A DNA stretch of 54,169 nt from positions 1 through 54,169 of the forward strand of contig MEDY01000192.1 of the NCBI GenBank assembly GCA_001724265.1, read 5' to 3'. The stretch is from Rhizaria sp. SCN 62-66 (taxonomy: Eukaryota). The stretch's first letter is position 1, and the number at the start of each line of letters is the position of its first letter. Positions 2,460 through 36,565 of this stretch are shown in pieces. The notes beneath the pieces are model-generated. The model ran no database searches. It was not told the DNA's origin and saw only the letters and a program-made list of their open reading frames with translations. Position numbers and translations under genes: made by a program.

Positions 2460-3372
2460 GCGGAGTGTTAGCGCGTTTTGGAGTCATATTGCCGCTGTAA
2501 TATTGTGCGTGTGGCTGTCTTAATTGGTGTTCTCTTGTGTAGAGGACGGCAGTGAAGAGCTCGATGGCCAGATTACGCGCATATGCGCTGTAAATCGACT
2601 CACTTAGAGTAGTGTTAGATTAATATGAATATTATACACTTGAAATTGTTGAATTAAGGCTCACTGTGTTGATTTCAGCGCGATACTGGTTGAAATTTCT
2701 TTGTTCGAGGATTCTCTAAGTCCAGGTAGGAAATGTCGGTTTGTATTGAGTTAGAGTGATGATTACTGATTATAAGATAATGAATTGCACCAAAATGGGA
2801 GCAATTCCATCGGTTTGTCCCCGTGAGTTCCAAACTCTGAAACTGCTCACAGTCACTTTTACTACACTCCTGACTTTTTCGGTCCCGCCACCCGACTGAC
2901 GATGTGAGATTAGCGCGCCATTTGGCCACAGTCATGTCGCCAATATCGAAGGGAAATTGAGGCTATTGTACATTTTGTAATGAAGTGCTGTGAATTGATT
3001 TGAATAGGGCGCTGCCTTGAGAGTAATATGTGATTATAGGCACGCGTTATGTCAATATCTGTGGTCTCTATTTCCTTTCGTCGGTGCACCGTCTTCGCGG
3101 TTCGCTTCAGCAGTTGTCTTTGCCTGCGCTCTGTCCCAGGCTTTTGCACGTTCACTTTCCGCTTTTTGCACTTGTATCAGCACATTCATATACTTGATAT
3201 GCACAAATATTCCCCGCATATCTGTTCCCGCTGACGGATTCTCCCACTTTCGTGCTCTTTTCCCCGCTTCCTCACGTGTTCCCACTGCCCCGCTCTCAAA
3301 CATGCTCTCGTGCTTGCACCTGCGCCTTGTGTCACTTCGCTCTGCTCTCGCGCTCCCCACGTCACGATCCAG

Positions 3373-4488
3373 ATGTTCCGCCTGTCCACCGGCCTTTCCA
3401 AGGTCTTCACCACCTCGGCCGCCGCCGTGAAGCCCGCCCCCGCGGTGTCTTCCTTCCTGTCCATCCCCACTATGGGCTTCGCTCGCGTCGCGCGCGCCGC
3501 CAAGGTCGAGGTCGTCGAGCCCGCCGCCGCCCCGCGCAAGCGCAAGACCGCCGCCGCCGCCGCCGCCCCCGTCGTCGTGGTTGCCGCGACGCCCAAGAGC
3601 CGTGCCAAGCTCGCCACGACCCCCGCGACCGCGGCGGCCAAGAAGACGAAGCTTCCCGAGGGCCTCGCCTCGAGCGCCGGCATCGACATCGTCCCCGCTC
3701 CCCCCGCGCCCCGCTCCAAGCTTCCCACCCGCGCCGCCATTGCCGAGGCGTACTACGTCGCGTCTGGCGCCAAGGTCGCCGGCGGCGGCCGCCGCGCCCC
3801 GTTCGTCCCCACTCCGGCCCAGCTGCTCGCGCACCGCACCGACTCCGCCGCTGTGAACGACCAGTGCATCGCCAGTGCGACGGCTGCGCTCCCGGCCACG
3901 GCCACCAAGGCCGAGGTCGCCGAGACCGTCGCCCGCGCGCGCGCGGCTGCTAAGGAGATCATCGAGCAGCAGAACAAGATCATCGAGCGCTCTGCGAGCA
4001 TGATCATGAAGCGTCATCGCACCAACCAGCTCTCGGAGCGTCTGCTCATCAAGGACGCGCTGCTCCGCGGCCGCGCCCGCCCCCAGGGCTGGTATGCCAT
4101 CTTCCTCAAGTCCCTCGACGCCTCTCAGCGCCCCGAGGGCATGACCCTGATGTCGTACGCGGCGTCGAAGCGCGCGCAGCTCACGGACAGCGAGATTGCC
4201 GAGTTCCGCATGCAGGCTAAGCAGCTGAGTGAGGAGTTCAACGGCGAGCTCGCCAAGATTCCCAAGCGCCCGCTCTCGGGCTACGCGCGCTTCTTCTCCT
4301 CCAACTTCAAGTCGGTCCCCGTCCCCTCGGACCTGTCTTCGCGTCAGGCCGTGACGTATGTCGCCCGCGAGCTTGGCGCGGCCTGGAAGGCGCTGCCCGA
4401 GGAGACCAAGAAGGAGTGGGCGCCCGCTGAGGAGGAGAAGCTGGCGTACAAGGAGGCCATGAAGAAGCTCCACGCTGAGGTTCTCTAA
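3373..4488 (+). CDS. HMG-box protein with probable mitochondrial presequence (TFAM/Abf2/Glom-like architecture)
   Basis: C-terminal HMG box PKRPLSGYARFF...VARELGAAWKALPEETKKEW..AEEEKLAYKEAM, preceded by a degenerate box (RPQGWYAIFLK...QLTDSEIAEF). The N-terminus MFRLSTGLSKVFTTSAAAVK is acid-free. Stop is TAA. Confidence 0.75.
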   Translation: MFRLSTGLSKVFTTSAAAVKPAPAVSSFLSIPTMGFARVARAAKVEVVEPAAAPRKRKTAAAAAAPVVVVAATPKSRAKLATTPATAAAKKTKLPEGLASSAGIDIVPAPPAPRSKLPTRAAIAEAYYVASGAKVAGGGRRAPFVPTPAQLLAHRTDSAAVNDQCIASATAALPATATKAEVAETVARARAAAKEIIEQQNKIIERSASMIMKRHRTNQLSERLLIKDALLRGRARPQGWYAIFLKSLDASQRPEGMTLMSYAASKRAQLTDSEIAEFRMQAKQLSEEFNGELAKIPKRPLSGYARFFSSNFKSVPVPSDLSSRQAVTYVARELGAAWKALPEETKKEWAPAEEEKLAYKEAMKKLHAEVL

Positions 4489-5392
4489 AGTGCGTGCTTG
4501 CAGCAAGGGTAACTTTTGCTTGGGTGTTCTTGGTTTTTTGAGCACAGAGCAAACATGGCTGTAGGAGCACTCGTAATTATCAAAGTAGTCGTAGCAGTAA
4601 TCACAATTAGTATCAGTGAGTAAAAAAGCAGCAGTAGCGCTTGCACCGTTTGTTTTTGTTTGATTCTTGTTTGGAACAAGAGCAACGTCAAGGCTGCCGT
4701 CTCTCTGTTGCTTTCTGCTTGCTTGTATCATCTGTCTCTATCTTACGGGGGAGGTACCTTGCTTGTTAGGATAAGTCAGTGCGTTTTATAGTGCGTATTT
4801 GTACGCGTAATGTATTTTGTGTGTGTATGTATTAGTAATAACAACATCTGCACAGTTGTCGTCGCCGTGTTACTCGGCGCTGTTGCTGTGCTTAAAGACA
4901 CGACCACTTGTTGTCGTCGCTGTCTCTGTCTGTGCGTGTTTGGGAAGTTTTTTTTCTGTCATTCTTGCTATGCTCTTGCGCAACAAGGGGTTGATGACAA
5001 CACGTATGCAGGACGGAGCAGCTGTGACAGCAGCAGGTATCTTGGGGTTGAGAGACTACAACAGAAGCAAGCAATGGTGTGGTTCCTCCAAGTGGCGGTT
5101 GTGGTACAAATAATGAGAAGAATAAATAGTCTGTCGTGTCGTGGAGACTCTGCAGATCAAATCATAAACAACGTTTTAAGACATCAAATCATTGCATTGT
5201 TTATTTTATTTAATTATATCTCACACAATCATCGTTTGTCGCTCCATATCTTGTTCCAAGCTGCCCTTCGGCCCACACGTTTAGGCAACTTCGTCAAACT
5301 TTGATTCCCCTTGCTCTCACGCCTCACAACCACACTGCAGCAACACATAGTTTCGGAAACGCGCTTGTTGACTGCGTTGGCGTTGTGGTACG

Positions 5393-8346: not shown

Positions 8347-11300
8347 TCACTGGTGCGAGGCCGTCTTCTTGAGCTTCTCATGGAGGCGCCCCAGCTCAGC
8401 CTCGAGCGCCACAGGCCTGCCGGCCCTGGTGGGCACCGTGGGCACGACGTTCAGCCGCCCGGGCTCTGCGCTCGTGCCTGCGTTGGGGTGATCGATCGTG
8501 ATCACGCGCGGCCGCCCGTCGGCCGGCTTGCGGAACACTGCGTCAGGCCACTGCAGCGGCTTCACCTGCAAAAGCTCACGCAGCTCGCGCGCGCCCGGGT
8601 CCGAAGGCAGGACTGTAAGCGTCGCGGCGGCGTTAAGCGCGTCCAGCTGCGCCAGAGAGGGCGTCGGCACAGGCGCGTCCCCCAGCAGACCGGCCGAGCC
8701 AGAGCCTGAGCTGTGTGGCTGCAGCAGAGCTAGCGAGCGTGCGCTCACGCCGCTGCCGCCGCTGCTGTTGCTCGCGGACGAGCCCTCTGCCGCTGCGGCG
8801 GCCGCGGCGGCGCGGCGGCCTGTGTTGCGCGCGCGCTGCGCGTTCGCGGCTGCGAACGCCGACGACGCCGGGGCCTGATACAGCCCCGCGAAGGACAGCG
8901 CGCTCGACGGCGGGCCGGGGCGGTAGTTGGACGAGAACGAGCCGTAGTCGTCCTCGCCGCCGTCGCCGTCTTCGTCATCGTCGCCGTCGCGCCTGCTGCT
9001 GCCGCCGCCGCGGTTGTCCGTCGTTGTGAGTGCCGTGCTGGCGGGAGCGACCGGAACGAGCGCGCGGGCGTTCCCGCCGCTGGAGCTGGAAGCTGCGGCT
9101 GCGGCAGCGGCGGAGGCGGCGGCGGCGGACGCGGCTGCGGTGGCCCGGGTGAGACCGCGCGGGGGCGCGCCGGCCTGCTGCTGTTGTTGTGCCGGAGGTG
9201 AGTAGAGCGAGTTGGCAAAGATTGCGGTGGCATAGTCGTCGCGACGCTCGATCTCGTAAGCGTCCATCTCATCATCGCCGTCGTCCTCTTCGTCATTGTC
9301 GCTGTAGCCAGCGGAGCCAGAGGCAGCGCCACCAGTCTTGGACGTGCGAGCATTGTTGTTACTCGCGGCCGTCGCAGGCGCAGAAGAAGCTGCAGTCGCA
9401 GGCTTGGCTTCAGCGAAGGCCTCAGGGTTCGCTGCCGCGTTGGTAGCTGCGTCCGAGTCTTGCTGCTGTTGTTGCAGGTGCTTGCTGTACTTAGTGAGCA
9501 CGCTGCGCAGCCGCTCAGATGATGTCAACCCGGCAGCGCTGTCAAGCGCGCTCCTGCGCGCCCTCGCGCCCGCAGCCTCGCGCTGCTCCTCTTCCTCGAT
9601 CAGCCGCAGCTCCTCCATGTCAACAGCCGCGCTGGAGCGGCCACGCGTCGCCGCCGCCGCTGCAGCCGCGGCGTCGCGCACTTCGTCCTCATTCTCCGAG
9701 GCGCTCACATCACACCAGCTGCGCGGCGCAGAGGACTCCCTCCGCGCCGCCGCCGCCGCCGTCGCAGTGGCCGCTGCGAGGTTCGCGGCCACGGCGGCGC
9801 GGCGGCGCGCGCGGCTCTGCGCGGTGCCGGACTGGCTCGTCGCCACAGACGCCGCGGCTTCGGCGGCGGCGGCGGCGGCGGCGCTGGCGGCGGAGGCAGC
9901 GGCCGCCGTCGCCGCGGTGGCCTTGGCGCGCGGGCAGAGCGCAAGATCCCACGGCACGTAGTGGCGGCAGCGCGGGTGCGAGCACGCGATGGAGCCGTCA
10001 GCGGCGCGCTCCTCCCCGTCCTCGGCGCACTTGCCGCCGACAACAGACCTGGAGACTGTGCAGCGAGCGCTGTCCTTGCGCTCAGCGGATGAGGACACAG
10101 CGGTGGAAGCGGCGGCGGTGAGCTTGTGGGTGTCGACGTCGTCATCATCGTCCGCGGCGTTGTTGTTCGCGTAGAGGTTCGACAGGAACGTCTTGTCTGC
10201 TGCGGCGCCCGCAGTCTTGGCCTTGGCGGCCGCGCTGGCTGGTGCGGTCAAGCTGGCGAACCCGCTCAAGCCACTGACGACCGATGCGGCGATGTTGTTC
10301 GCGCGCGCCCGCGCCGCGGCCGCCGCACGGTTGCGCCGGGCCTTGTTCTCCTCCTCTTCCTCCTCGGCGGCCAGCACGCGCATCTGCCTCTCCGCCGCGC
10401 GCACGCGCCTGCGCAGCCGCGCGGCGGCGCCATGCATGTGCTCGGTCCCGCGCAGCCTCAGCAGCAGCGCGGGCACGTCCAGCGTGGGGCGCACACCGAG
10501 CTCGCCGACGAGCTGCCCCACGCGCGACCACACGCGCACTTGTCCGTTGTCCGACGCCGTGGCGAACGCCTGCAAGTGCGGCGCGGCGACCACGGCGGTG
10601 GGCAGGCCGCGCGCGTGGGGCCGCCACGAGTGGATCAGGCGGAACAGCGGACGCACGTGCGCGCGCAGAGACGAAACCACTGCGTTGGACAGCGGGAGTG
10701 CGATAGAGCTGCCACTAATAGGGCTGGTGCTAGCATTGGAGTTAGAGCTGGATGAGGCGTTGGCGTCAGTGTTGGCGTCCGCGCTAGACGTTGCCGTCGT
10801 GGCCGCAGCACCAGCGGCGCCAGCTGCAGTTGCACTGGCATCGGCTGAACTGCCGCTACTGCCACTGTTGCTGCTGTTGGCAGCACCGGGAGCAGAAGTT
10901 GCGGTAGTCCCAGCAGTCGCCGCCGCTGCCGCCGCCGCTGCCGCCGCCGCCGCCGCCGTCGTCGCGGCCGCAGCTGCGACAATGGCGGGGCATCCCGCGG
11001 CCGCCGCAGCCGCTGCGGGGCCCAACGCGCTCTCCACCGCAGCCGTCGCTGTTGTGGCAATGCCGGTCACTTCGAACGCGGTCGCGCTCGCACCGGGCGC
11101 CAGATCGCGCGCGATGCCGCGCCCGGCCTGACTCGCGCCAGCGGCAGCAGCGGCTGCAGCGGCGGCGGCGGCCGCGGCGGCAGCGGCGCGGGACTGTTTA
11201 CCGGCGGCCGCGCGCACCGGCACAAGCGGCGCGCGCGCGAGCGCGGCAGCAACGCCGAGCGCAAGCGGCGAGCATGAGTACGTGTGTCCGCCGTTGTGCG

Positions 11301-14300
11301 CGACGGTGGGCGGCACGGTCGCGGGCTTGGCCTCGAGCAGCGCCGCAACGTCGTCGAGCGCGAAGACGCGTGCGTTTCCGCTGGCAGACACCACGAGCAG
11401 GTGCGTGTCGCGGGTAAGAGACGCCGCGGCGGCCACGGCGGCGGTCGCCGACACAGCGCCAGATCTAGCACCCGCGCCTGCGCCCGCACCCGTGCCCGCG
11501 CCCGCGCGCGCACCGCTGCTGTTGCTGTTAGACTTCGCAGCGGAGTGGAGCGCAGGGCCTGAGCCAGAGGCAGGAACGGTGTGGCGCGGGCAGACGGCAA
11601 AACGCGCGGCGTCGGGCGAGGGCGCAAAGCGCATCAGGGGGGGCTGCGGCTCAGTCTTCTTCTCGCCCTTGCCGCCAGACACGGCTGCGGCGGAGGCCGC
11701 GGCGGCAGCGGCGGCGGCTGCGGCGGCAGCGGCAGCGGCGGCGGAACCCGCTCCCGTGGCCGCGGCTGCTGCTGCTGCTGCGGCTGCTGCTGCAGCGGCG
11801 GAGGCAGCAGCAGCGGCGGCAGCAGCGGCGGCGCCCGTGCCGGTGCCTGCAGAAGGGTCGGTGACGCTGGTGTCGGGCTCACCGCCGACAGAGGCGAGGA
11901 TGGCCATGTTGGTCACGGCGTCGGGCGCGGCGCGCGCGAGCGTGTGCAGCAGCGTGAGCGAGCCCGTGACGTAGCGCAGCACGTGGATGTCACCGTCGTC
12001 AGTGCCCGCAAAGAGCAGCGTCACAGTGTCGCCGGCACCAGCGGTCGCGGAGACCGACGCAGCCGCGGAGGCGGAGGTCGCTGTCCCGCCGATGTGGCTT
12101 ACACTCGCGTTGTTGGCGCTGGCATTACCGTTTGCGTTGGCGGGGGCAGCGGGGAGACGGAGGGACGCAAACAGCATGCTCGTGACCGACGCAGCGCCAG
12201 GCGAGACGGCCAGGACTGACGACTGAGCGCCGCCAGTGCTGCCGATACTAATGCTGCCCGCGCCACCAGCAGCCACACTGCCAGCGGTCGCGTTGCTGGC
12301 GCCGTTCGCAGACTGGGCCGCGCAGTCGCCAGCAGCAACGCCAGCGCTAGCGCTACTATTGCTGTTACTGTTCGCGTTCGCAGCAGCGGAGCCGGAGGTA
12401 ACAGTCGTGAGCATCGGCGGCGCAAGCCCAGCGCTACTGCCCGCGCCCACACTGCCAGTGCTGTTGCTGTTCGCAGCCGCAGCAGCGCTGAGCGGGTCAC
12501 CGGGCAGCCAAGGGCACTTGGCCGTGCGCGCGCGCCCTGGCGCCGCGGCGACACGAGCCATGCGCGCGCCGCGCACGACGGCCTCGGCCTCCGCGGGCGT
12601 GAGAGAAGGCGGGAGCGCGATTGAGGCGATAACGCGCGTGGATTCTTGGTTCCACAGCACGACCTCGCCGGAGCTGGTGCCCGTGGCGAGCGCGGAGCCC
12701 AGCGCGGCGACCGAGGTGATGTCGACGCCGGGCGCCAGACGCGCGTGCTCGAAGGGCTGCGCGGTGGCGGGCGCGCTGGGGTCAGGCCAGCGCAGCACGG
12801 GGAGGTCCCAGCCCGTGCCCACGAGCGTGTGGTCCGTGCGCGGCAGGTGCAGCAGCGCAGCAACCTCCTTGTTGTTGATGGGTACGTAGTCGTGGACGAG
12901 CCCGCCGTTGTGGATGTTCCACATGCACACGCAGCCGGAGCGGAAACCCGTGATCAAACGCCGTCCGCGCACGTCGACGCACACCGCGGTGACCGGGGAG
13001 CCGCCGCGCGAGCCGTTGCCGCCGCCAGCGCCGGAGCCGCCGCCGGAGCTGCGCGAGACCACGACGGCGCTCGTGCCAACAGAGGCCGAGGCAGAGCCGG
13101 CGCCCGCGGAGGTGGCCGCGCCCGACGCGCCGCTGCGCCCGTCACCGCCCTGTTGCGGCGGCGCTGCGGTGAACTCAAACACCGCGCGGCCCGTCTCGAG
13201 CGACCACAAGTGCACGACGCCGTCCGCGCCGACCGAGAGCAGCTGGTTAAACAGCGGCGAGTGGCCGAGCCCGACGACGAGCGACGCGTGCGCAGGGAAC
13301 CCCGTGCGCGCGCGGTTGCCTGGCGCGACTTGCGTGGGCCAGAGGCGGAAGCGCGGGCCGGCAGTGATGAGCCGTTGGTTCTCGTAGTCAAACGCAGCAG
13401 ACGTGACTGCGTTGACGGGCGCGTAGTCATGCGAGTCGACCGACACGGAGAGACAGCGCATGGTGCGGATGTCAAACACGCGGGTGCGCTTGTCGGCGCA
13501 CACGGCGAGCAACTGGTGGCACGGCTCGTTGGCGATGACTTGCACGACGCGCGACCCCGTGGGCAGCGAGCCGACAGTGGTGCCCAAGTGCGGATCCCAC
13601 AACGAGATGTGGTTGCTGAAGCCGACGGACGCGATCAGACGCCGCGTCGCCGCAAACGTGTAGATCCCCTTGCGGTGCCCGCCGCTGCCGCCGCTGCCGC
13701 CACCCGGCGCCGCCGCGTGGGGCTGCGCCCCAGCGCGCGCGAGGCCGCCGGCGCCGCCGCCGAGGATGCTGGGCAGACCCGCGGCCGCGGCGGCCGCAGC
13801 GGAGGGCGAGGCGGAGCCGCTGGACCCGGGTCCGTTAGAAAGCCCAGATGCCGCGTAACCCGACCCCATGCCGAGCCCCGTGCTGTTGCTGTTCAGCCCG
13901 CCGCCGTGGCCGTAGCTATTCGCGTTCATGTTCGCGTTGGCAGTGCTGGCGTTGGCGCCGAGAAAGCGGATGCCTTCGCCGAGGCGGTGCACCGGCGCAA
14001 CAGCGAGCAGCCCGTCAGTGCCGCACGACACGAACGCGGCCAGGTGCGGGACGTACTGGATCTTGCTGATGACGTGGCCGGGGTGCGGCGCGTACGACAG
14101 AAGCTGGTGGCCCGCCAGACCGGGCGCGGCCAGCGGTTCGTTGTACAGAGACGCCAGCAAACCGCGACCGCCCTCGTTGTTGACGTAGCCGGCGCCGACG
14201 ATCGCGCTGTTGTTGCTGTAGTAGCTGCTGCTGCCGCTGCCCGGAGCAAAGGCGGCCGCGGACGAAAGCACGCCAACGTCATCACCGTCAGCGGCGGCCA

Positions 14301-17300
14301 GAGTGCGTCGGTAGTACGACACGAACGAGCCGACGCCCGTGGTGTCGTTGCGCTCGTCCTCGTCCACGTCCGGACCAAGCCCGCTGGCGCCGCCGAGCCG
14401 GCCTGCGCTGGCAGCGGCGTCGGGCGCGCTGCCAATGGCGCTGCCGCCGAGGCCCTGCGCAAACAGTCCCGCGCTGCCGTTGCTGATCGACAGCGCGGTA
14501 TTCCGCCCACCGGCGCTCGCGCCAGCGCCGCTGAGCGCGGCGGCGTTGGCGCTGGCGCTGTTGGTGATGACAGGCACTGCGCTAGTATGCGCGGGCGCGC
14601 ACGGCAGTCCGCGCGACGCGAGGCCGTACACAGTCACCGTGCCAGTCACGTCGCCCGCTATGAGCGCGTTGTCGACCGTGTCGAGCGCGACTGTGAGCTG
14701 CGGCGTTGTGAACAGATCCGTCAAGTGGCACCCAGTGCCGGCGCGCGGGCCTGACGTGGGGCCGTGCGAGAACAGATACGTGAAGCGGTTTTGACCGGCG
14801 ACGACGATCTGCCGCCCGCTGCGCCAGTAGCACAGCGCGGAGTGCGGCAAACCAGGCGGGCGCGCGGAGGACCGGCCGCCGCCTCTCGACTGCCCGCGGT
14901 GCCCGCGGTGGCTGCCGCGGCCGGAGGTGGAAGCGCGAGACTCGATGTCACTGCCGCTGTCGCTGTTGCTGTGGCCGTTGGTGTTTTGCGCATCGCCGTC
15001 GCCGTCGCCGTAGTAGCCGAGGCTGTTGTGTGCGCCGTCGTTGTTGTCGTTCTCGCTGTTGTCACTGCCAGCGTTGCCATCGTCGCTCTTTCCGACGAAT
15101 CCACGAGCCTTGCTACTGTTGCTGTTGCTGCTACTGTTGGGACCGCGGAATGCACTGGGCAACGCCGCCGCCGCGGTGGCGGATAGGCGCGCGCGCCCGG
15201 GATCGACGACGCGGCCGCGGCGGAACGTGGGCTCGCCACGGCCCTTCGACGAGTGAACACCCTTAGTCGACGACAACGAGGAGGAACCCTTAGATCGCGC
15301 CGCGCCGCCCTTGGACCGCGCCGTCTCAGCGCCAGAGGCCGTCATACGCGCAGTCTTACCGGCATCGCCGTCGTCGCCACTGCTATAATTGTTCGTAAAC
15401 TCACTGTCGCTACCGTTGTTGTTGCTATTGTAGTAGCCGTCATGGTCTGAGCCCGCGCCGCCCGAGTCAGATCCGCTTTCATAGCCGCCCCAGCGCGTGC
15501 GCCGGCCGCGCGGCGCCGACGTCCCGGCGCTCAGCGCCGCCGCCGCGCGCGCCGCGGCCGCCGCCGCGCCGCTGCCACCGCCGCCGCTGCCGGTGTGGTA
15601 CGCACTCGCGGCCGGCGGGGGCGCACCGCGCTGCAGTCCGAGCGCGGTCTCCCGCGCGCGCGCAAGCACGACGGCGCGCAGATCGTCCACGGTGACGCCG
15701 CGCGCGCTGCTGCTGCTGGCCGTGGCGCCACCCGTGGAGCCAGGGTCGGAGAGCAGCGCGCGCGGGCCAATCAACGCTGCGGCGGCGTCGACCAGGGACG
15801 CAGCGGCGCGGCCGCCGCCGCTTGCGTTGCCGTTGCCGCCGAGGCCCGCGCCGGCGCCGTTGCCGGCCGCGAAGTGGTGCGCGCCGGCGCCGCGAGCGCT
15901 GCTAGTGCCGCCGCTGCCGCCGCCGCTGCTGCCAGGGCCGCCGCCGCGCCCGCGCGCCGCCGCGACGGCCGCCGCGCGCGCCGATGCGCCGCCGAGGTGG
16001 GCGTAGCGCGGGCGCGAGTACGACGCCGAGGCGAGCGAGCCAGCGGCAGCGGCGGCGGCGGCGGCGGCGGAGGACGACGCCGAGGACTGCTGCAGCAAGT
16101 ACTGGCTACCGTCGTAGGTGTTGCTGGCGCTCGCCGCGCCAGAGCCGGCGCCGGTCGTGGCCGTGCCCGCGGTGGGAAACGCGGACCGCAGTACGGCCTG
16201 CGCGGCGGCGGAGGACGACGGCAGCGCCGCGGCGGTCGCAAGAGTGGGGCCCTTGCGGCGGCCGCGGCTGGAGAAGCCGCCGCTGATCGAAGACAGCGCT
16301 TTGGGGTTGTTCGCGTTCGCATTATTCAGGCTGTTACTGTTGTTGATAGAGGGCAGGGCAAGGAGGTCGTACTCGCTCAGATGCTCGTCGATCTGGCTCT
16401 GCTCCAGTGCCGCCGCGGCCGCCGCAGCCGCGCCACCGGCGCCCGTGTTGGCGTTGCCGTCGCCGTCGTCATCGCTGTCGCCAGCTGTCGGCACGGCGCT
16501 GCTCCAACGCGCCTTGCGCCCGCGCCGCCCGCTGCCCGCACCGCCGCCGGCGTTGACGAGTGCGCCACCGCCGCCGCCGAGCCCGCCCGCGAGGGAGAAC
16601 TGCGCGATAGCCTGGCCGGCCGCGGTGACGGCGTGCTGTGACGCGCTCGACGACGCCCCCGCGCCGCTGCCGCTGCCGCCCGTGCCGGCGACGGCGGCAG
16701 TCGCAGCGGCGTAGGTCTGCGCGAGATCGGCCAGTCCATGCACCGGCAGCGTGGTCGCGTAGACGGCCGAAGCAGGGCCGGGCACGGTGTGCCAGAGGTG
16801 GATGTTGTGGTCAGAAGTCGAGAAGAGATACAGCGCGCCGGCGGCACCAGGCGCGCGCGCGACGGAGCCTGCGGGTGTAGTGAGTGAGCCCACGGTCGGG
16901 CCGACACCGATGCTGCCGCCGGCGTTGACTGCGGACGCGTTGGGCGCGGCGGCCGTCGCAGCGGCAGCGGCCGCGGACGCCAGACTCGCGCCGCCAGCGC
17001 TACCGCCAGCAGTCGCCGGCGCGGCCGCAGTCGCGGGCGTGCCGCCGCTCGCACCAGCTGCGGATGCGCCGCTGCCACTGCTGCTGTTGCTGGCGCCAGC
17101 GGAGGTGCCACCGATAGCCTGCGTGATCGCAAGCGCGGCGACGTCTGCAGTGAGGCCCGTGACGGTGGCCGGCAGCGCAGCGAGCGAGCCGGGCGCAGCT
17201 GCAGCAGCGCCGGCGCCAGCGGCCCCGTGGCTGCCAGTGCCCGCGGCCGCGTTGGCGGCGCCTGTGTCCGTGGACGGCACGACGAGCACACGCGTGATGA

Positions 17301-18963
17301 CGCCGCCGCCGCCGCGCCGGTCCGCGCGCTGCGGCGGGCGCGGGTCCTCGCGCAGTGAAAATGCGCCGCGCGCCGACACGCGCTGTGCTTCGAAGGCGAC
17401 TTCACGGTGCACGAAGGACAGGTACTCGATCCAGGTGAGGGAGCCGTCGTCGTTGGCGTCGATCTTGAGAAACAGCGCGTCCAAGTCCTCCGGCGGCATC
17501 GATAACAGCGAAGACAGGAGCGCAGTGAACTCGGGCCGGCGCAGACCGCTGTCGCGCGGACGGCGCTGCCAGATCCGGCCCAGGTCCGAGAGGGACTCGA
17601 TCACGCTCAGGTGGTTGTTGCTGTTGACGTTGCCTCCGCTGCCACTGTTAGTATTGCTATTACTGCCAGTGGTCGCAATGAGAGCCTTGGAGTCGCTCGA
17701 CGCGTTCGCCGTGTTGCTGTCGCCACTGGAACCGTAGGACGAAGAGGGCAGGAACGCGGCCGCAGCGGCCTCCGCAGCCGCAGCGATCGCAGCAGTGTCG
17801 CTGCCGCCGTCACCGTAAGCACTCGCCCCTGCGGACGCGTTGTTGCTGTTGAAGCTGCTGCTCTCGAACAAAGCCAGTTCGCTGTTGGCACCGTGCGCGG
17901 GGATGGCAATGCCGTCTGCGGCGGCGAGGGCGGCGGCCTCTTCCTCGGCCGCAGCGGCCGCGGCGCCCGCAGCCGCTGTCGCAGCAGCGCCTTTCTTTTT
18001 CCCAGCCCGCCCGTGACCGTGACCGCGGCCGTTACCGAGGCTGTTGCCGTGGTTGCTGCCGTGTTGGGCAGCGTCGGCGGCGCTGTAGTTGCCGGGGCCG
18101 AGCGCCAGCGCACGCTGCCGCGCGCGTTTCGCCGCGATTGCAGCGCCGGCGTTGCGGAGCTATGCGATTTGGATCGCCATCGCACTCGGAGCAGCCGCCG
18201 CAGCAGAAACCGCGGTTGTATTCGGCGCCGCGGTGGCGCCGGCGCCCGGAGTCAAGGGCTGCAGCTGCGACGGCTGCCGCTGCAGCTGCTGCTGTGGATT
18301 GGCGGCGTTGACGTTGATGTCGCTGCCGTCCTGGTGCTTGCGGATGGCGCGGTGGGCGTCGACGAGCGAGGTTTTGCTGTGTGAAGCGAGGAGTTTGACG
18401 CCGTGCCATGCGGCCCACACGCGCTCGGACGCGCCGGAGCCCGTGAGGCCGTACTGCGCGAGCGCGACGGCGCGCGGGTCACGCTCAGCCTGTGCAGCAG
18501 CTGTTTCTGACGCAGCCGTTGCAGCTCCGGTCGAGGCGAGACGCTGCGAGCCCTGCAGCTCGCCAGACGCAGAGAACGAGCCCGCGGGCGCCGCAACGCT
18601 GCTGGGCAACAACGCGGGGTTCGCCGGGTACTGCTGCGACTGGCCGTACGAAGCTTGAGACGCGTGCGAAGGGTTTGACGAGTGGAGCGCGGTGCGCAGC
18701 ATCTGCGCCCACTGGTTTGGCGACTGGCGCGCGGGGATGTCGCGGCCGAGCATCGCGGCCATGCGCTGCGGAAGAGACTCGCGCCGGGCCGCGTCGGACG
18801 TCATAAACGAGCCTGATGAGCCCGCGCTGTGGGCCGTGGCGCTGCTGCTCGAGCTAGCGCTTGCTGAGGCAGCGGGGTCTAGTGGGGGAATGATTGGGGA
18901 GAGCAGCGACGGGGACGGCGAGCCCGAGTGGCTCCGGGAAGAGTCCGCCGGCGCGCGACTCAT
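8347..18963 (-). CDS. giant EF-hand + WD40 protein (CFAP337/WDR49/WDR64/EFCAB8-like), 3538 codons including one in-frame TAG at 18160-18162
   Basis: EF-hand LDALFLKIDANDDGSLTWIEYLSF; WD40 repeats GHRKGIYTF...IASVGFSNHISLWDP, QLLAVCADKRTRVFDIRTMRCL, RRLITGFRSGCVCMWN. ORFs 18160-18963 and 8347-17871 are in the same frame, and I translated the gap (LRNAGAAIAAK...NSELALFESS) stop-free. Terminal stop is TGA. Confidence 0.8.
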
Positions 18964-22537: not shown

Positions 22538-23402
22538 ATGTCTCTGGTCGCGCTTCCGTCTGCCCAGTCCTCGGCCCTGGTCGCCTCCGCGGGCTCCGCG
22601 CTCTCAGCCACGCGCACCAGTACGCTCCCCGTGCCCACGCTGCACCTTGCGGGCCACTCCGGCGCCGTTAACGCCGCCGCATTTTCTCCCGACGGCACGT
22701 GGCTCGCCACGGGAGGCCAGGACTGCAACATCCTCCTCTGGGACCTCTCCCCCTCTACCAACCCTGCTACCGCGGCCGCGGCGGGCCCCTCGTCGTGCGT
22801 GAACACGGCCGTGCTGTCGGGGCACCGCGCGGACGTGCTGCAGCTTGCCTGGACGCCCGACTCGGCGCTCATCGCATCCGCCGCGGCCGACGGAGGCGCC
22901 TTTTGGGACGCCGAGACCGCGACTCGCGTTAAGCGGCTCCGGCACAGGCTCACGGTCACTTCTGTCGCCACTGCACGGTCGGGCCCCGCGATGGCGCTCA
23001 CAGGCAGCGACGACAAGACGGCCGCGCTCTGGGAGCCCCGTTGCAAGGAGGCAACTGCTGTGTTTAACTGCCCTTACCAGGTCACTGCTGTCGCACTCAC
23101 TCCGGATGTACGTCGCATATTTCTCTCTCGTATCAACGTTAATCAACAAAAGTATTCAGTTTAACACGATGCCATTTTTATTGCATTTTTAAATTTTTAG
23201 ATTTTATTGCGATTTACGTTGACCTTGATCTCTATATCTCACTTTCTATGTCACGCTTTTGTTGTTGTGATTCGCTTGGCGTATCGCAGGCTGCTTTTGC
23301 GTTCACGGGTGGTCTCGACGAGGTGATCCGCTGCTGGGACCCCCGCCGCACCGAAAAGCCCGTCTACACCCTCCAGGTACGTTCTTCAATCACTCAAACA
23401 AC

Positions 23403-23462
<60 letters not shown>

Positions 23463-23968
23463 ACCCTCTTAAACAACTACAATGCCTCTCGAATCTCACC
23501 ATATCAACTTCTCAACTTTGCGCATTTCTCGGTTTTCTATCTTTTTTTTTGTTGCTTTCACCACAGGGCCACACTGGCACGGTGACCGGCCTGTCCGTCT
23601 CCCCCGACGGCACGCTGTTGCTCTCCAACGGCTCGGAGGGTGCTTTGCGGACCTGGGACTGCCGGCCCTTTTGCCCCGGCGGCGTCACCGCGCGGCCCAT
23701 CGGCGCCTACGGCGGTCTGGTACACGACCCGGCCGCGGGCGCGCTGCTACGGTGCGCAGTGAGTCCCGACGGCGAGCGCTTCGTCGCCGGGTCAAGCGAC
23801 GGCGTGGTCAACGTGTGGGATCGGCAGAGCTACAAGCTCGTGCACCAGTTGGGCGGACACAAGGGCGCGGTCAACGACGTCGCGTGGCACCCCAAGATGC
23901 CTGTGCTGGCCTCCGCGAGCGATGACAAGAGCGTCATCCTCGGCGAGCTGCCCCTCACCGAGGACTGA
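22538..23968 (+). CDS. SNRNP40: U5 snRNP 40 kDa WD40 protein; exons 22538-23107, 23290-23376, 23567-23968
   Basis: RTSTLPVPTLHLAGH, PYQVTAV, TGGLDEVIRCWD, GHTGTVTGLSVSPDG.LLSN, WDCRPF, LLRCAVSPDG and ASDDKSVILGEL all match U5-40K. Two phase-0 GTACG...CAG introns. Stop is TGA. Confidence 0.9.
23404..23460 (+). repeat. (AAC)19 microsatellite in SNRNP40 intron 2
   Basis: Perfect AAC run read directly. Confidence 0.95.
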
Positions 23969-30971: not shown

Positions 30972-33900
30972 TCAGTCGGTCCACACGGCCCCGGTGTAGC
31001 CCAGGTCACGCGCCGCCGCCGCCGCGGCCTCGTCGCCAAGCCCCAGCACACGGCCGCGCATGTCGCTGCCAGTCACTGTCTCGGGCAGGTACGCCGACAG
31101 CGGGCTCGTCAGCGGGTTGAGTCCGCCGTGCACGCTGTTAGCCATCGCGGCCGCCACGGCGCCGGCGTTGGCCCCACCGGCGCGCCCGCGACCGCCGAAG
31201 AGCCCCGGTCGCCCCGCGGCCGCCCCGCCAGTCTTCTTGCCGCCGCCGCTGGCGTGGGCAGCGGAGGAGGCGCGGAGCGCAGCGGCGCCCGCGGAGGCCG
31301 GCGTGGGGGTGGGCAGCGCGCCCTTAGTGTGTAGCACGTGCAACAGCACGCGGAGCTCCTTCTCGCTCATGCGCTCGCCCAGCGTGCGCACTGCGGCGGC
31401 CAGGGCCGCGCGGGAGACGGCGCCGCCGGCGAGCAAAGCTTCTGCGGCCTCGATCTCGGCGTCGGCGTTATCATGAGACTAAAAAAAAAGAAGAAAACAA
31501 CAAAATCGGAAATGAATATCTTATGAGTTCAATAGTAAGTCTAGTAAAAATATTGTAGAAACTTAAGCACGGAATACATTTATCAATTTTGTGATATATC
31601 GCGAGGAAACTTCGAATAAGCGTACCTGTGTCATGGCCGCCCCGAGCACGCCGACCGCGCCCTCAACAGCGCCGGGCGCGATGCCGAACACTGGCCTGTG
31701 GTTGGCCAGGAGACGGATGACGTCCCGCAGCCCCACAGTCTCCTCGCGCACGCCCCCGCGCGTCGGCACGGGTGTGATACGCCGCGCCGCGCGCGCAGTT
31801 GCCGCCGCGAGCAAGGCCGCGTCACTCCCACTCCCGTTGCTGCTGTTGCTAATGTTGTTGTTTGCAGCCTGAGGCGAGATGAACGCGTCCCACATGACCT
31901 CGGCGTGGATCTCCTCGACCTGCGCCTCGCTGGGGTAAAACCCGAGCGTGCGCATCATCACCACGGCCTCAGCCAGCGGGATGCGGCCCGTCACACGGCG
32001 CTCCCCGCTCTTGTGCAGGCCGTCTGCGCGCAGCTGCGAGTGGTGGAACGCGTCGACGAGCTCTTCGTACACCTCCGCAGCCGTCACAGCGCCGCCCGAC
32101 GCGCGCGCCGCAGCGGCAGAGGCCGAGCTGGAGCCCAGCGCTAGCCCGCCGTCGGCGGCGGCGCCGTCGGTGATGAGTTGCAAGTACGAGTCCGTCACGG
32201 AGTCGCCGGTGACCGTTGCGCTGTAGCTCGCGCTGCTGCTGTTGGCGGTGCTGCTGGCGGCGAGCGCGAGGGACGCGTCAAGCGCGGCAGTGTTGACCCC
32301 CCAGAGGTTCACCGTGCGGTCCCGGCCGCCCGCAGTGAGCACGAAGCGGCCGTCACACGTCGGCGCCAGCGCAGTGAGCGCACCGGGGTGCGCAAGCATG
32401 GCCATCGACCGCTCGGGATCACCGGTCAGCGGCAGCTTCATCAAACCGATGATCTTGCTGTCGCACGCGTACACCACGTAGCTCGACGCCGCGAAGCGCC
32501 GCTGCGGCCCGCCCGCGCCGGCAGCAGCGCCGGAGACCGAGGCCGAGGCCGAGGCGGGGACGCGCGTGGGCAGCGACACGAGGCGCGTGACGGGCCCGCC
32601 GTAGGCGGGAGCGAGCGTGACCTTGCGGCAGATGAGATGCTTGAACGCGCTCAGCGGGCACACCGCCGTCGCGCTGAGCCCCGAACCGCTGTTGTTGGCG
32701 CCGCCAGAGGCCGAGGCAGAGGACTGGGCCTCGGCGACAAGCGCGCGCAGCGCCGACGACGGCTCACCGTTGAACCCGGCGTCCGCCGCGTCGTCGCCGC
32801 TCGCGCCGCCGTTCGCACTGCTGTCGCAGCCGCTGCTGGTGACGAGCGCGGGGTCGGAGCACAGCAGCGGCGCCCACCAGAAGGGCTGCGCGCCGCCGCG
32901 GTTGAACGCCGCCGCCTGCTCCGTCGGCCGCATGAGTGCCGTGTTCCCGGCGGCGGCACCCGCAGCGGCACCCGTGGCCCCGTGTGCCCCCGCGCTGGCG
33001 GCCTTGCGCGCGCCGCCCGGCGTGCGGAACGGAGAGTTCATCATGTTTGCCGTCGACGCGGGCCCGTGGTGCGGGGTGTCGAGCCCACGGTCGCCGCCGC
33101 CGCCGCCACCCAGCGCCACGCCCGTCGCAGTGCCCGGCGCGCCGCCGCTCAGCATGCGGGACGCGGCCGGCGTGGCGAGGACGGAGCCCACGCCGCCCGC
33201 GGTGCCGATCGAGCCTGCGCCGCCCGCGGTGAGTGGGACAGACCCCGCGGCGGCGGCAGCGGCGGCGGCGGCAGCGGCGGCGGCAGCGGCGGCGGCAATG
33301 TGCTGCGACGGGAACGCCGTTTGCTGGTGGAAAAGCTTGAGTTTGTATCCTTCCGTGGAGACGACGACGCAGTCGCTCTGCACCAAAAGGTCTCCGGACT
33401 CGCAGTGTGATAGTACCGAGGCTGGGGGCAGCGCGCCGCCCGCGCCCGGGTGGATCACGCCGCCACTCGCCGTCACCATCACACCGCCACCGCCACTGCT
33501 GCTGCTGTTGGTGTTGGCGCCGGCGAGAGAGGCGGCGGCTCGGCGGAACTCGGCCGCTGTGGCCACGACACCGGGCAGCGGCAGCATTGCGACTGCAGCG
33601 TCGGTCTGGTCCACCGCGCTCGCGGCCGCAACGAGCACGCCGTCCTTGATACTCGCGCGCGCCACGTCATACTCGACGAGGCGCCGGTCCGCGCCGAGCG
33701 AGAGCAGGCGCGGGGCGGCGGCGCGGTAGGGCTCCCCGCGCGCGGGCAGCAGGGGGGCCACGGCGGCGGCCGCCAGCGCCAGCGCGCGCGCGGCCTGCTG
33801 CGCGGCGGCGCTCGAGCCCGAGGTCGCGGCGGCGAGCGCGGCGGCGACGGAGGACGCCGAGGCCGCGCCCGAGATGGAAGCGGCCGACTGCGGCGGCGGC

Positions 33901-36565
33901 TGGAGGTGACGCGGCGGGTGCGTGGCGTGGAAGCGGCGCAGGCGCGCGGCCTCGGCGTCGAACTGTGCCGCCACGCGGTCGGGCGTGCGTGAGAGGTCGA
34001 CGGCGCCCGGAACAAAGCGCAGGTCAGTGATGGAGGAGTAGTGGCCCTTGTTGCTGCCGATGAACACCCACTCGAGCTGTCGGTCCAGGCGCTCGTCCTA
34101 AAGCGGTTCGATGAGCGGTTTGATAAGACACAAAGAAATAATCAGATATGACACAAATGAGCAGTATTCAAAAATACAATTAAAAAAAATTAAAAAAGGG
34201 TCATTTTAGCAAGGCTGCTTTTTAGCGATAAAATTGACGTTTGAAGATGTTTGAAGTCAAATAACAGCGAGTAGCCTTTGTTTTGCTGTTACCGTACCTG
34301 GTGTGTGTAGCGGAAGAGCGAAATGTACTGCGCAGAGTCGGCGACGGCCAGCCACTGCTCGTCCTTGGAGAATGCCACGTGTGTAATCGCGCCGGTGCAG
34401 ACCGCGAACGACTGGAACACCTTGAGCGGCTCCACTACAAGTGCGCCGCCCTCGCCGTTCGCCCCGTTATCGCCGTCCGTGGTCAGCCCGGGGACGGCGG
34501 CAGCGAGCGACGTAACGAGCTCGAGCGCGCCCGAGGCCATGCCGACGGCGATGACGCGCCCGGACGGCGAGAAGCGCACGGTGCTAATCCGCGCCGCAGC
34601 AACCGCGGCAGCAGCGGCGGCCGACGACGAGGCCGACGCTGCCGACGAGCCGCCGCTGACGTTGCTGCCGTTCGTGGCGCTGGAGTCGCCCTGGAGGTAG
34701 CCGCTGGCGCCCGCGGTGGCGGCGGCCGCGGCGGCCGTCTTGGCGCTGGGCAGCACGAGCGACGACACGAGCGCGGTTTTCCCGCCGTCAGCGCCGCTGC
34801 CGCTGCCGGCGTTGGCGTTGTTGACGGTCTTGCCGTTGCGTGCCGCGTGCGTGCGCGAGCGCGTCTTGGAGTTAGCCGCCGCGGCCGCGGCCGCCGCGGC
34901 CTCGAGCACTGCGGCGGCGGCGGCGGACGTCGCCGTGACCGCGGCGGCCGCGATAGAGCTCGAGTGCGTCGGCGGCGGCGGGTTCAGTGACGCGCCGACT
35001 AGGGACCGGGAGGCAAGGAGCTCGCGGTCTTCAACGTCCCACAGCTGCAGCGTGCCGGCCGCGGTAGCGGCAACAAAGACGGGCAGCGACGGGTGCGTGT
35101 CCAGCGCGATGACGTCGCCGTCGAAGCCTTGGACAACCAGGCGGCCCTGTTATCGAAGAGTAGATTTAAGCACAAAGATATGAGTGAATAAGGACGAAAA
35201 TTATGCATAAACATTGTTAAAATAGATAAAATCTATTTTAACAATAGATAAAATGTGAGCAATGACGGTTAATTTCACGGTTCAAGAATATAGTTGCGCT
35301 AGGGATCGTACCTGACGGGCGGCCGAGTCGTCGCCTTCACCGTCGCCGCCAAGCGCGTCGAGCTGTTGCGCATCCAACCGCACGATTTTACCGTGCGCAG
35401 TCGCTACCAGCAGCTCTGGCACAAGGAACTCCGTGATGGTCGCGGCCGCGGCGGCGGACGTGGCGCCAGTCTTGTCCCCGGCGCCCGCGGCGGCGGCGGC
35501 GGCGGCGGCGAGCGCGGGCACAGTGTTCTTGTCTGCGAACGACGTGGCGACGATGGGGCCCGCAGCGAGGTCTTCGAACCACGCCACGATGCGGAACTGG
35601 AAGTCGAAGAAACGTACAGCGCCGTCTTGGCAGCCACAGACGAGGTAGCGGTCGAGCACGGTCGAAACGATGTTGATGCCAGAGTCAGTGCATAATTCCA
35701 GCACCTTGATCGGCTCGCGGCCAGCGGTTTGGACAAGCTCTGACACGGGGTAGTCCCACTGCACGACCAGACCGGTTGAAGTCGCGGTGCACGCCTTCGT
35801 GGTGTATGGGAAAAACGTCGTTTGCGTCATGGCGCCGAGACGCTTCGACCCCGGTGCGCGCGGCGCCTTGGTGGGGTGTAGCGCGGTGAGGCGGTCGTCC
35901 GCGCCCCAGGACCAGAAGATCACCTTGGAGAGCCCGTTGGTGACGATGTCGCGCACGTCGACAGGGTTAAAGCGCACGCAGTGCTGGAACTCGCCGCCGT
36001 CGACGACGCCGCGCACTACGGGCAGCCCCGACGTCGCGGCGGCCGCGGCGGCGGCGGCGGCGGAGGAAGTGGCGAGCGCGGGCGGCGACGAGGTCCACTA
36101 CCAGACCGCGATTTCCTGGCGCGGGAAGGCGTGTGAGAGCGCGACGATAAACATGGCGTCGGCGGAGAGGTCTAGCGCGCACACGCCCGACGGGAACGGG
36201 TTGGGGATGATCTTGACGGGCGTGGCCTTGAGGGCGTCCCAGACTACGATCATCGACTCGTTGCCGCAGTCGGCTGTCACGATCCAGCGTTTGTCCGTGG
36301 AGACGCATGCCGCCGTGATGGGGTTGCAGTGGCCCTGCAGCAGCGACTGCTTGTCTGTGGCCGTGTCCAGGATCACGCCCGTGTGCGCAGCGACGTAGAA
36401 GACGGCGTTACGCTCGGCTGTGACGAGGCTGATGGCGCCGCCGGGGATCTGCGAGTTGAAGCCGAAAGACCAGCGCAGGTTTAGCGCGTTGGCGTCTGCC
36501 ACAGAGCCGGGGCTAGGGCCTGCGGCAGAGGCGCCGCCGGTGGCGGAGGCGTCGACCAGAGACAT
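30972..36565 (-). CDS. CFAP251: cilia/flagella-associated protein 251 (WDR66); exons 36565-35312, 35146-34298, 34097-31626, 31478-30972; in-frame TAG at 36098-36100
   Basis: LNLRWSFGFN, LLQGHCNPIT..VSTDKRWIVTADCG, GAVRFFDFQFRIVAWFE, LLSLGADRRLVEYD, RKVTLAPAYGGP, GLMKLPLTGDP...AHPG, MRTLGFYPSEAQVEEI, RLLANHRPVFG and GERMSEKEL. Three phase-0 CAG|GTACG introns. Terminal stop is TGA. Confidence 0.9.

Follow-up and report, generated by a model that had tools for sequence, protein, structure and literature searches.

The 54,169-nucleotide stretch of DNA analysed here, in the following called the window, carries on its minus strand a giant EF-hand/WD40 gene whose reading frame is interrupted by a single TAG at 18160..18162. 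None of the 14 definable gene ends of the window is a TAG and two TAGs lie inside flagellar genes, which suggests that TAG is probably read as an amino acid; we give a probability of about 0.65 to the reading that it is decoded as a rare sense codon in this organism. The ribosome would then pass the TAG at 18160 by insertion of an amino acid, TAG would no longer be a terminator, and termination would be left to UAA and UGA. The decoder of UAG would presumably be a tRNA carrying a CUA anticodon; alternatively, near-cognate decoding would be combined with a weak recognition of UAG by eRF1. Ala/Gly/Ser-rich inserts would bring the giant protein to 3538 residues. The original prediction, which was made from the letters of the window, had stated that the open reading frames on both sides of this TAG form one gene, that the TAG is not a splice acceptor and that it is translated, with Gln or Glu as natural readings in a low-complexity region that does not identify the residue. 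The first two parts were borne out; translation is favoured by way of the second in-frame TAG and the lack of TAG among the terminators, and of the two residues, the only informative site favours Glu.

A single gene spans the TAG at 18160

The giant gene and its parts are as follows; X3 (DNA) and X4 (RNA library) are runs of other studies, L001 is a contig of a relative, and P0035 and P0036 are related proteins.

18160..18162, minus strand: in-frame TAG, codon 268 of the giant gene (sequence; X3 and X4 contigs, 0 differences)
18163..18963, minus strand: N-terminal 267 codons, first in-frame ATG at 18963 (codon model; GC drop 5' of 19000)
8347..18159, minus strand: remaining 3270 codons and TGA stop, with EF-hand block, WD40 propellers and long Ala/Gly/Ser-rich inserts
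18361..18453, minus strand: conserved N-terminal motif YGLTGSGASERVWAAWHGVKLL, residues 171-201, upstream of the TAG (match to the L001 orthologue, P0035 and P0036)
17263..17646, minus strand: conserved EF-hand block, residues 440-567 (conservation starts at HLSVIESLSDLGRIW, upstream of M489)
17497..17499, minus strand: M489, first ATG 3' of the TAG, within the conserved EF-hand block (A, L or M in the orthologue column)

On the minus strand, the TAG stands at 18160-18162 in the context ATG GCG ATC CAA ATC GCA TAG CTC CGC AAC, as had been read before, and it is the sole stop in a single frame that leads from the ATG at 18963-18961 to the TGA at 8349-8347. The 267 codons, the TAG and the 3270 codons add up to 3538 positions, and when this frame is counted only from a TTG at 17871, it gives the 3174-codon ORF that had been described downstream of the TAG. 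In-frame Met residues are found at positions 1, 54, 68, 71, 88, 262 and 489 among the first 520 positions; the first ATG after the TAG is indeed M489 (17499-17497), which is part of LSMPPED. The composition is alike on both sides, with a GC1/2/3 of 0.66/0.64/0.79 upstream of the TAG and of 0.64/0.63/0.78 between the TAG and M489, and the GC content is about 0.44 beyond 19000, that is, 5' of the giant gene. In 2000 shuffles that preserved the position-specific composition, the upstream 267 codons came out stop-free in 0.7% of cases, and the 220 codons that separate the TAG from M489 did so in 14%. Because 14% of the shuffles lack a stop, the openness of the latter segment is weak evidence when taken alone, and the one-gene argument is carried by the codon model and homology, not by openness. 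When all six frames were scored with a model of codon usage that had been trained on the other genes of the window, 18163-18963 reached +0.258 bits/codon, the segment from the TAG to M489 +0.412 and 16000-17499 +0.422, always in the same frame; the remaining five frames are negative in each of these segments, and all six frames are negative in the 5' flank beyond 18963. It is therefore well supported that the 267-codon ORF belongs to one gene with the 3270-codon frame.

The TAG is neither intronic nor a splice acceptor

In the window, 13 introns were recognised, all of which are AT-rich and have a GTACG donor; the 5' splice signal is unusually uniform across them.

1685, 23108, 23377, 24776, 26264, 30024, 30347, 39338, 40218, plus strand: intron donors, GTACG
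35311, 34297, 31625, 28724, minus strand: intron donors, GTACG

Eight introns, whose ends were read or which are skipped by cDNA contigs, are around 110 to 215 bases long and end in YAG; two of the 13 are spliced out in cDNA contigs of run X7. Exonic GTACG is mildly depleted (19 observed, 27.7 expected). The two GTACG motifs upstream of the TAG (G at 18649 and 18454) both lie in codon phase 2 (xxG TAC Gxx), in line with the original prediction, as do four further GTACG in the body of the giant gene, which are plainly unspliced; the two upstream ones are ordinary Tyr codons. Use of the TAG as a splice acceptor breaks the frame, as had been claimed: when either GTACG is joined to its AG, a stop is reached after about 190 codons. 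Furthermore, the region around the TAG has a GC content of 70%, unlike all 13 introns, so that it is well supported that the TAG at 18160 is neither intronic nor a splice acceptor. One of the introns, which belongs to a WD40 gene with the look of SNRNP40, contains a long (AAC)n microsatellite at 23393-23470.

Orthologues of the giant gene

The giant gene is predicted to encode a WDR64-like EF-hand/WD40 axonemal protein. Among solved structures, WDR64 is its best match (chain 9fqr_No, E 1.7e-9), and Pfam assigns WD40 and propeller families; no EF-hand family was found in Pfam at E 0.01, and the loop DANDDGSLTWIE, as judged by eye, agrees with the canonical pattern. In the giant protein, as in WDR64 and other EF-hand/WD40 axonemal proteins, the EF-hand block lies at the N-terminus and the WD40 propellers come after it. 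However, WDR64-like orthologues, with which the EF-hand block is shared, are 1041-1439 residues long, and the window's protein is, with 3538 residues, two to three times longer. The excess in length is due to low-complexity inserts (Ala 23.5%). A further difference is the additional N-terminal motif, which is common only to P0035 and P0036.

A metagenome scan yielded the relative L001, 21 kb of a 200 kb contig with about 52% GC. Its giant orthologue, which is present in the protein library as P0035 (2946 residues), is a single ORF of around 2945 codons from the first ATG with zero stops of any kind. This ORF matches residues 171-201 of the window's protein, upstream of the TAG, with 45% identity (BLASTP E 4e-7) and also the EF-hand block (residues 473-567) with 52% identity (E 4e-31), so that the upstream motif and the EF-hand block are found in one uninterrupted ORF of the relative. 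The same arrangement, with the N-terminal motif and the EF-hand in one polypeptide, was found in a second relative, P0036 (1346 residues). A HMMER search with residues 1-641 of the giant protein against 1.84 billion representatives gave 25 hits at E<=1e-3, one of which is the window's own upstream ORF. Eleven of the 25 hits were chosen for an alignment; the EF-hand block aligns in all 11, and 10 of these are conserved from HLSVIESLSDLGRIW (HLSVIESL) onwards, around 45 residues before M489, which itself falls into an internal column of A, L or M. A start at M489 would, as had been argued, cut into the conserved block, because conservation precedes M489 and there is no other ATG between the TAG and M489. 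Since the ORF of the relative is uninterrupted and conservation begins upstream of M489, the TAG lies within an ancestral continuous coding sequence.

The site of the TAG itself is not alignable. A by-eye alignment of the TAG flanks to L001, which had placed the TAG opposite a Lys, was dropped, as it was not significant by Smith-Waterman (score 33, shuffle mean 28, 65 of 500 shuffles as good). A word-indexed homologue search with residues 1-640 gave no match, low-complexity words having swamped the 2285 candidates, and genome contigs scanned for an exact match to 40 bases at the TAG had none.

A second in-frame TAG in CFAP251

A further TAG interrupts exon 1 of a CFAP251 gene, which is encoded on the same strand; it is presumably the TAG that the original prediction had counted as the first.

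36098..36100, minus strand: second in-frame TAG, CFAP251 exon 1, context QEIAVW-TAG-WT (X4 contig 35819-36209, 0 differences)
30972..36565, minus strand: CFAP251 gene, four exons, three AT-rich introns (donors 35311, 34297, 31625), TGA at 30972-30974

The gene product matches Chlamydomonas FAP251 (chain 8glv_LY) with an E value of 2e-57, and the TAG is flanked by a conserved W and a conserved WT ("W-E-W-T" motif). An intron cannot remove the single codon between these two conserved Trp residues. Among 27 homologues of nearly the same length, the TAG column contains E in 15, D in nine (one alignment being doubtful), A in two and a gap in one; 80 longer homologues, which were placed by pairwise mapping, have E in 56, D in 10, A in eight, N in one and K in one, and four are unaligned. 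Overall, Glu occupies the column in 71 of the 102 aligning homologues (107 examined) and in all 14 members of the window's own CFAP251 clade; Gln is found in none of the 102. Glu is thus the best guess for the residue that would be inserted if TAG is decoded, a guess drawn from one CFAP251 column as the sole informative site; the earlier suggestion of Gln or Glu is favoured in its second half and not in its first.

When a residue was called broadly conserved if it is conserved in at least 80% of 33 other CFAP251 sequences, the window's protein keeps 34 of 35 such residues upstream and 52 of 60 downstream of the TAG, the latter being inside the range of other divergent orthologues, which keep 43-58 of 60-63 residues. 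The identity of exon 1 to the clade is 0.585 upstream and 0.492 downstream of the TAG (ratio 0.84), and the corresponding downstream/upstream ratios of clade members are 1.01-1.15; the lower downstream identity may come from window-specific Ala-rich inserts or from some relaxed constraint. No match to a CFAP251 piece was found in the scan of genome contigs. The best named hits are oomycetes, with 40-45% identity. In a FastTree analysis (34 sequences, 354 columns; sampled as the 15 best unnamed and 18 named hits of the 107 found), the window's sequence falls into an environmental clade with a support of 1.00, outside the oomycetes, and deeper nodes of this tree have supports of 0.11-0.48. As judged from these sequences, the organism represents a flagellate lineage, which is possibly a stramenopile.

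Base calls in independent runs

The runs in which the window is found are bioreactor, wastewater and activated-sludge metagenomes of several studies. The base call at the TAG at 18160 was confirmed by an X3 DNA contig (17500-18478) and by a 484-base contig from the polyA library X4 (17896-18379), both of which match across the TAG with 0 differences and belong to studies other than the window's. No alternative letter at either TAG is listed across the four runs compared; simple sequencing error and visible editing at the TAGs are excluded. X4 contigs also cover introns of CFAP251 in their unspliced form (35090-35340 and 31238-31829), which means that the library carries pre-mRNA or DNA, and they cover few of the AT-rich intergenic bins. 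Because introns are covered unspliced and few intergenic bins are covered, the X4 contig across the TAG proves neither mature mRNA nor DNA carry-over. None of the listed pieces of X5 and X7 bridges 18160; strain differences between the window and these two runs include 11 in coding sequence, four of which are synonymous, too few for a selection test.

Stop codon usage in the window and in relatives

The 14 definable gene ends of the 54 kb window comprise 7 TAA, 7 TGA and 0 TAG. If TAG is assumed to account for 20-30% of stops, the probability of finding none among 14 is 0.044-0.007. In-frame TAG was found in two conserved genes, the giant gene and CFAP251, a small sample that corresponds to two in 10,158 codons counted, or in about 13,000 by a rough sum that includes the remaining exons. 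Under the GC3-rich codon usage of these genes, 66% of random single-base nonsense changes create a TAG, and two TAGs out of two are therefore expected in 44% of cases under plain nonsense mutation; the type of stop alone says little.

In the relative L001, two of the five gene-like ORFs examined, SMC1 and the giant orthologue, end at the first TAG.

L001 1263-5378 and 9500-18337: SMC1 and giant orthologue, both running to the first TAG

The TAG of SMC1 comes 51 residues past the end of the SMC_N match, and no internal TAG was found in about 4300 codons of L001. Since the ORFs of L001 end at TAG and contain no internal TAG, this relative reads TAG as a stop, and a change of the code, if there is one, would be confined to the lineage of the window. 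L002-L006 gave no indication that TAG is used as a sense codon. Searches of the window and of L001 found no tRNA of any kind and no Rfam family.

Alternative explanations

The main competitor of sense decoding is the standard code with both TAGs as fixed or nearly fixed nonsense alleles, the two genes being recent pseudogenes or encoding truncated products while the flagellar apparatus is relaxing. We consider this unlikely, although several observations are in its favour. At the Glu column of CFAP251, a change from GAG to TAG takes one transversion, and TAG would arise in an estimated 66% of random nonsense changes; both interrupted genes are axonemal and could decay together, because both are ciliary. 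Furthermore, the relative L001 stops at TAG, the conservation of CFAP251 exon 1 is slightly lower past the TAG than before it, and in-frame TAG is very rare, far rarer than in the described reassigned codes. On the other hand, two hits in around 17 genes would have occurred, each without any other defect: 3270 and an estimated 1400 further codons follow without a second stop or a frameshift, splice sites and conserved residues are intact, and so is the adjoining WDR90/POC16. In addition, identical letters are found in contigs from runs of other studies, and the lack of TAG among the 14 terminators would be left unexplained. A still less probable reading, also under the standard code, is site-specific leaky termination, in which near-cognate tRNAs read through the two sites and TAG acts as a stop elsewhere. 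A TAG followed by C is a leaky context in eukaryotes, and C does follow the TAG at 18160; both in-frame TAGs are followed by a pyrimidine, whereas a purine follows 12 of the 14 true stops. However, the two sites have no readthrough motif in common (TAG CTC CGC and TAG TGG ACC), and for the 100 nt that follow each TAG, the predicted folding is not better than that of shuffled sequences (z +0.54 and +1.16). Supply of a structural axonemal protein by rare readthrough only is hard to square with a conserved function, and TAG, although it would stop elsewhere, terminates none of the 14 genes. The window's sites resemble programmed stop-codon readthrough in that a lone in-frame stop lies within an otherwise intact ORF; they differ from it by their lack of a shared context or downstream structure and by the absence of TAG from the 14 terminators.

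Readings other than sense decoding, readthrough and nonsense alleles are, even when taken together, very improbable. One of them holds that the upstream ORF, as a separate product or a long leader, ends at the TAG and that the WD40 protein is made separately, starting at M489 or at a non-AUG codon of either this transcript or a shorter one. With M489 as the start, the EF-hand loop would be kept, and gene callers do split the locus, with P0034 as a separate protein of 267 residues. Against such a split, which we hold to be most improbable, conservation extends around 45 residues upstream of M489, a column that A, L or M occupies in orthologues; the part of the frame that leads from the TAG to M489 has a coding score (+0.412 bits/codon), both parts are joined in one polypeptide in relatives, and there is no AT-rich intergenic spacer, unlike between other genes. 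That the true base differs, owing to an artefact of assembly or sequencing, is the least credible of all; no observation in its favour was found, contigs of X3 (DNA) and X4 (RNA library) from other studies match across the TAG at 18160 and, for X4, also across the second TAG with 0 differences, and no other letter is listed at either site in four runs. Sense decoding of TAG is thus the reading that we prefer.

Comparison with known nuclear code changes

Nuclear genetic codes have rarely changed. Among the known exceptions, UAR stands for Glu in peritrich ciliates and UAG for Gln in Amoeboaphelidium. According to PMC5304391 and PMC11687900, the described nuclear code changes come mostly from ciliates and a handful of other protists, and Amoeboaphelidium is listed as having a non-canonical code in the former. 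There is a close likeness to the rhizarian exLh (UAG=Leu) and to Iotanema spirale (UAG=Gln), which are reported as UAG-only nuclear reassignments (PMC5304391). As in the window, only UAG interrupts frames there, the terminators are UAA and UGA only, and close relatives apparently still stop at UAG, which makes the change specific to the lineage (PMC5304391). However, the same report gives 384 in-frame UAG in 71 genes, as compared to the window's two in about 13,000 codons, and the residue is Leu or Gln, whereas the one informative site of the window points to Glu (PMC5304391). Phyllopharyngean ciliates with UAG=Leu or Gln were found by mining metagenome assemblies and are thus alike in being metagenome-derived and in the reassignment of UAG alone (PMC11687900). 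In these ciliates, sense UAG is reported to be widespread and suppressor tRNA genes have been identified (PMC11687900); in contrast, the window is from a non-ciliate, its UAG is rare, and no tRNA was seen in the window or in L001. The code of Blastocrithidia nonstop is described as UAR=Glu (PMC12153298). Such UAR=Glu codes share with the window the reading of a stop codon of the UAR box as glutamate, but they change UAA too, and Blastocrithidia also reads UGA as Trp, whereas UAA ends seven of the 14 genes here. The literature search found no code that assigns UAG alone to Glu, and no nuclear stop reassignment for stramenopiles or oomycetes.

A more specific proposal, which is doubtful and put forward tentatively, is an undescribed nuclear code of an uncultured flagellate from wastewater, in which UAG would mean Glu and the stops would be UAA and UGA only. 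The change would be at an early stage, with UAG lost as a terminator and barely reappearing as a sense codon, while a relative with around 50% protein identity still stops at UAG. Should this be confirmed, an abundant wastewater eukaryote would have provided a new variant of the code, caught at an unusually early stage, with no TAG terminators and very few sense TAGs, which would bear on the debate between codon capture and an ambiguous intermediate. In practical terms, gene callers split genes at TAG: P0034 (267 residues, giant gene) and P0006 (244 residues, CFAP251) are listed separately.

Gene content of the window

The window is a eukaryotic contig with genes on both strands; coding stretches have a GC content of 70-75%, spacers and introns of 44-55%. 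By Pfam and PDB matches, its genes encode a TPR-like protein, an HMG-box protein, a cyclin, the giant EF-hand/WD40 protein, an ELO elongase, an RNase-PH exosome subunit, a secreted protein, a UDG/MUG glycosylase, RidA, FAM177, CFAP251 and WDR90/POC16 with a CFA20 domain. A further WD40 gene looks SNRNP40-like, for which Pfam gives WD40 only. Three large axonemal or centriolar genes, the WDR64-like giant, CFAP251 and WDR90/POC16, are found within 40 kb (8347-48201), and all of them are inflated by low-complexity inserts of Ala, Gly, Ser and Asn. Long antisense ORFs that originate from the high GC content are numerous across the window. The longest ORF at 3052-4731 on the minus strand (559 residues) is such an artefact; the real gene on the opposite strand encodes an HMG-box protein (3373-4488, plus strand, GC3 0.88, Pfam HMG_box).
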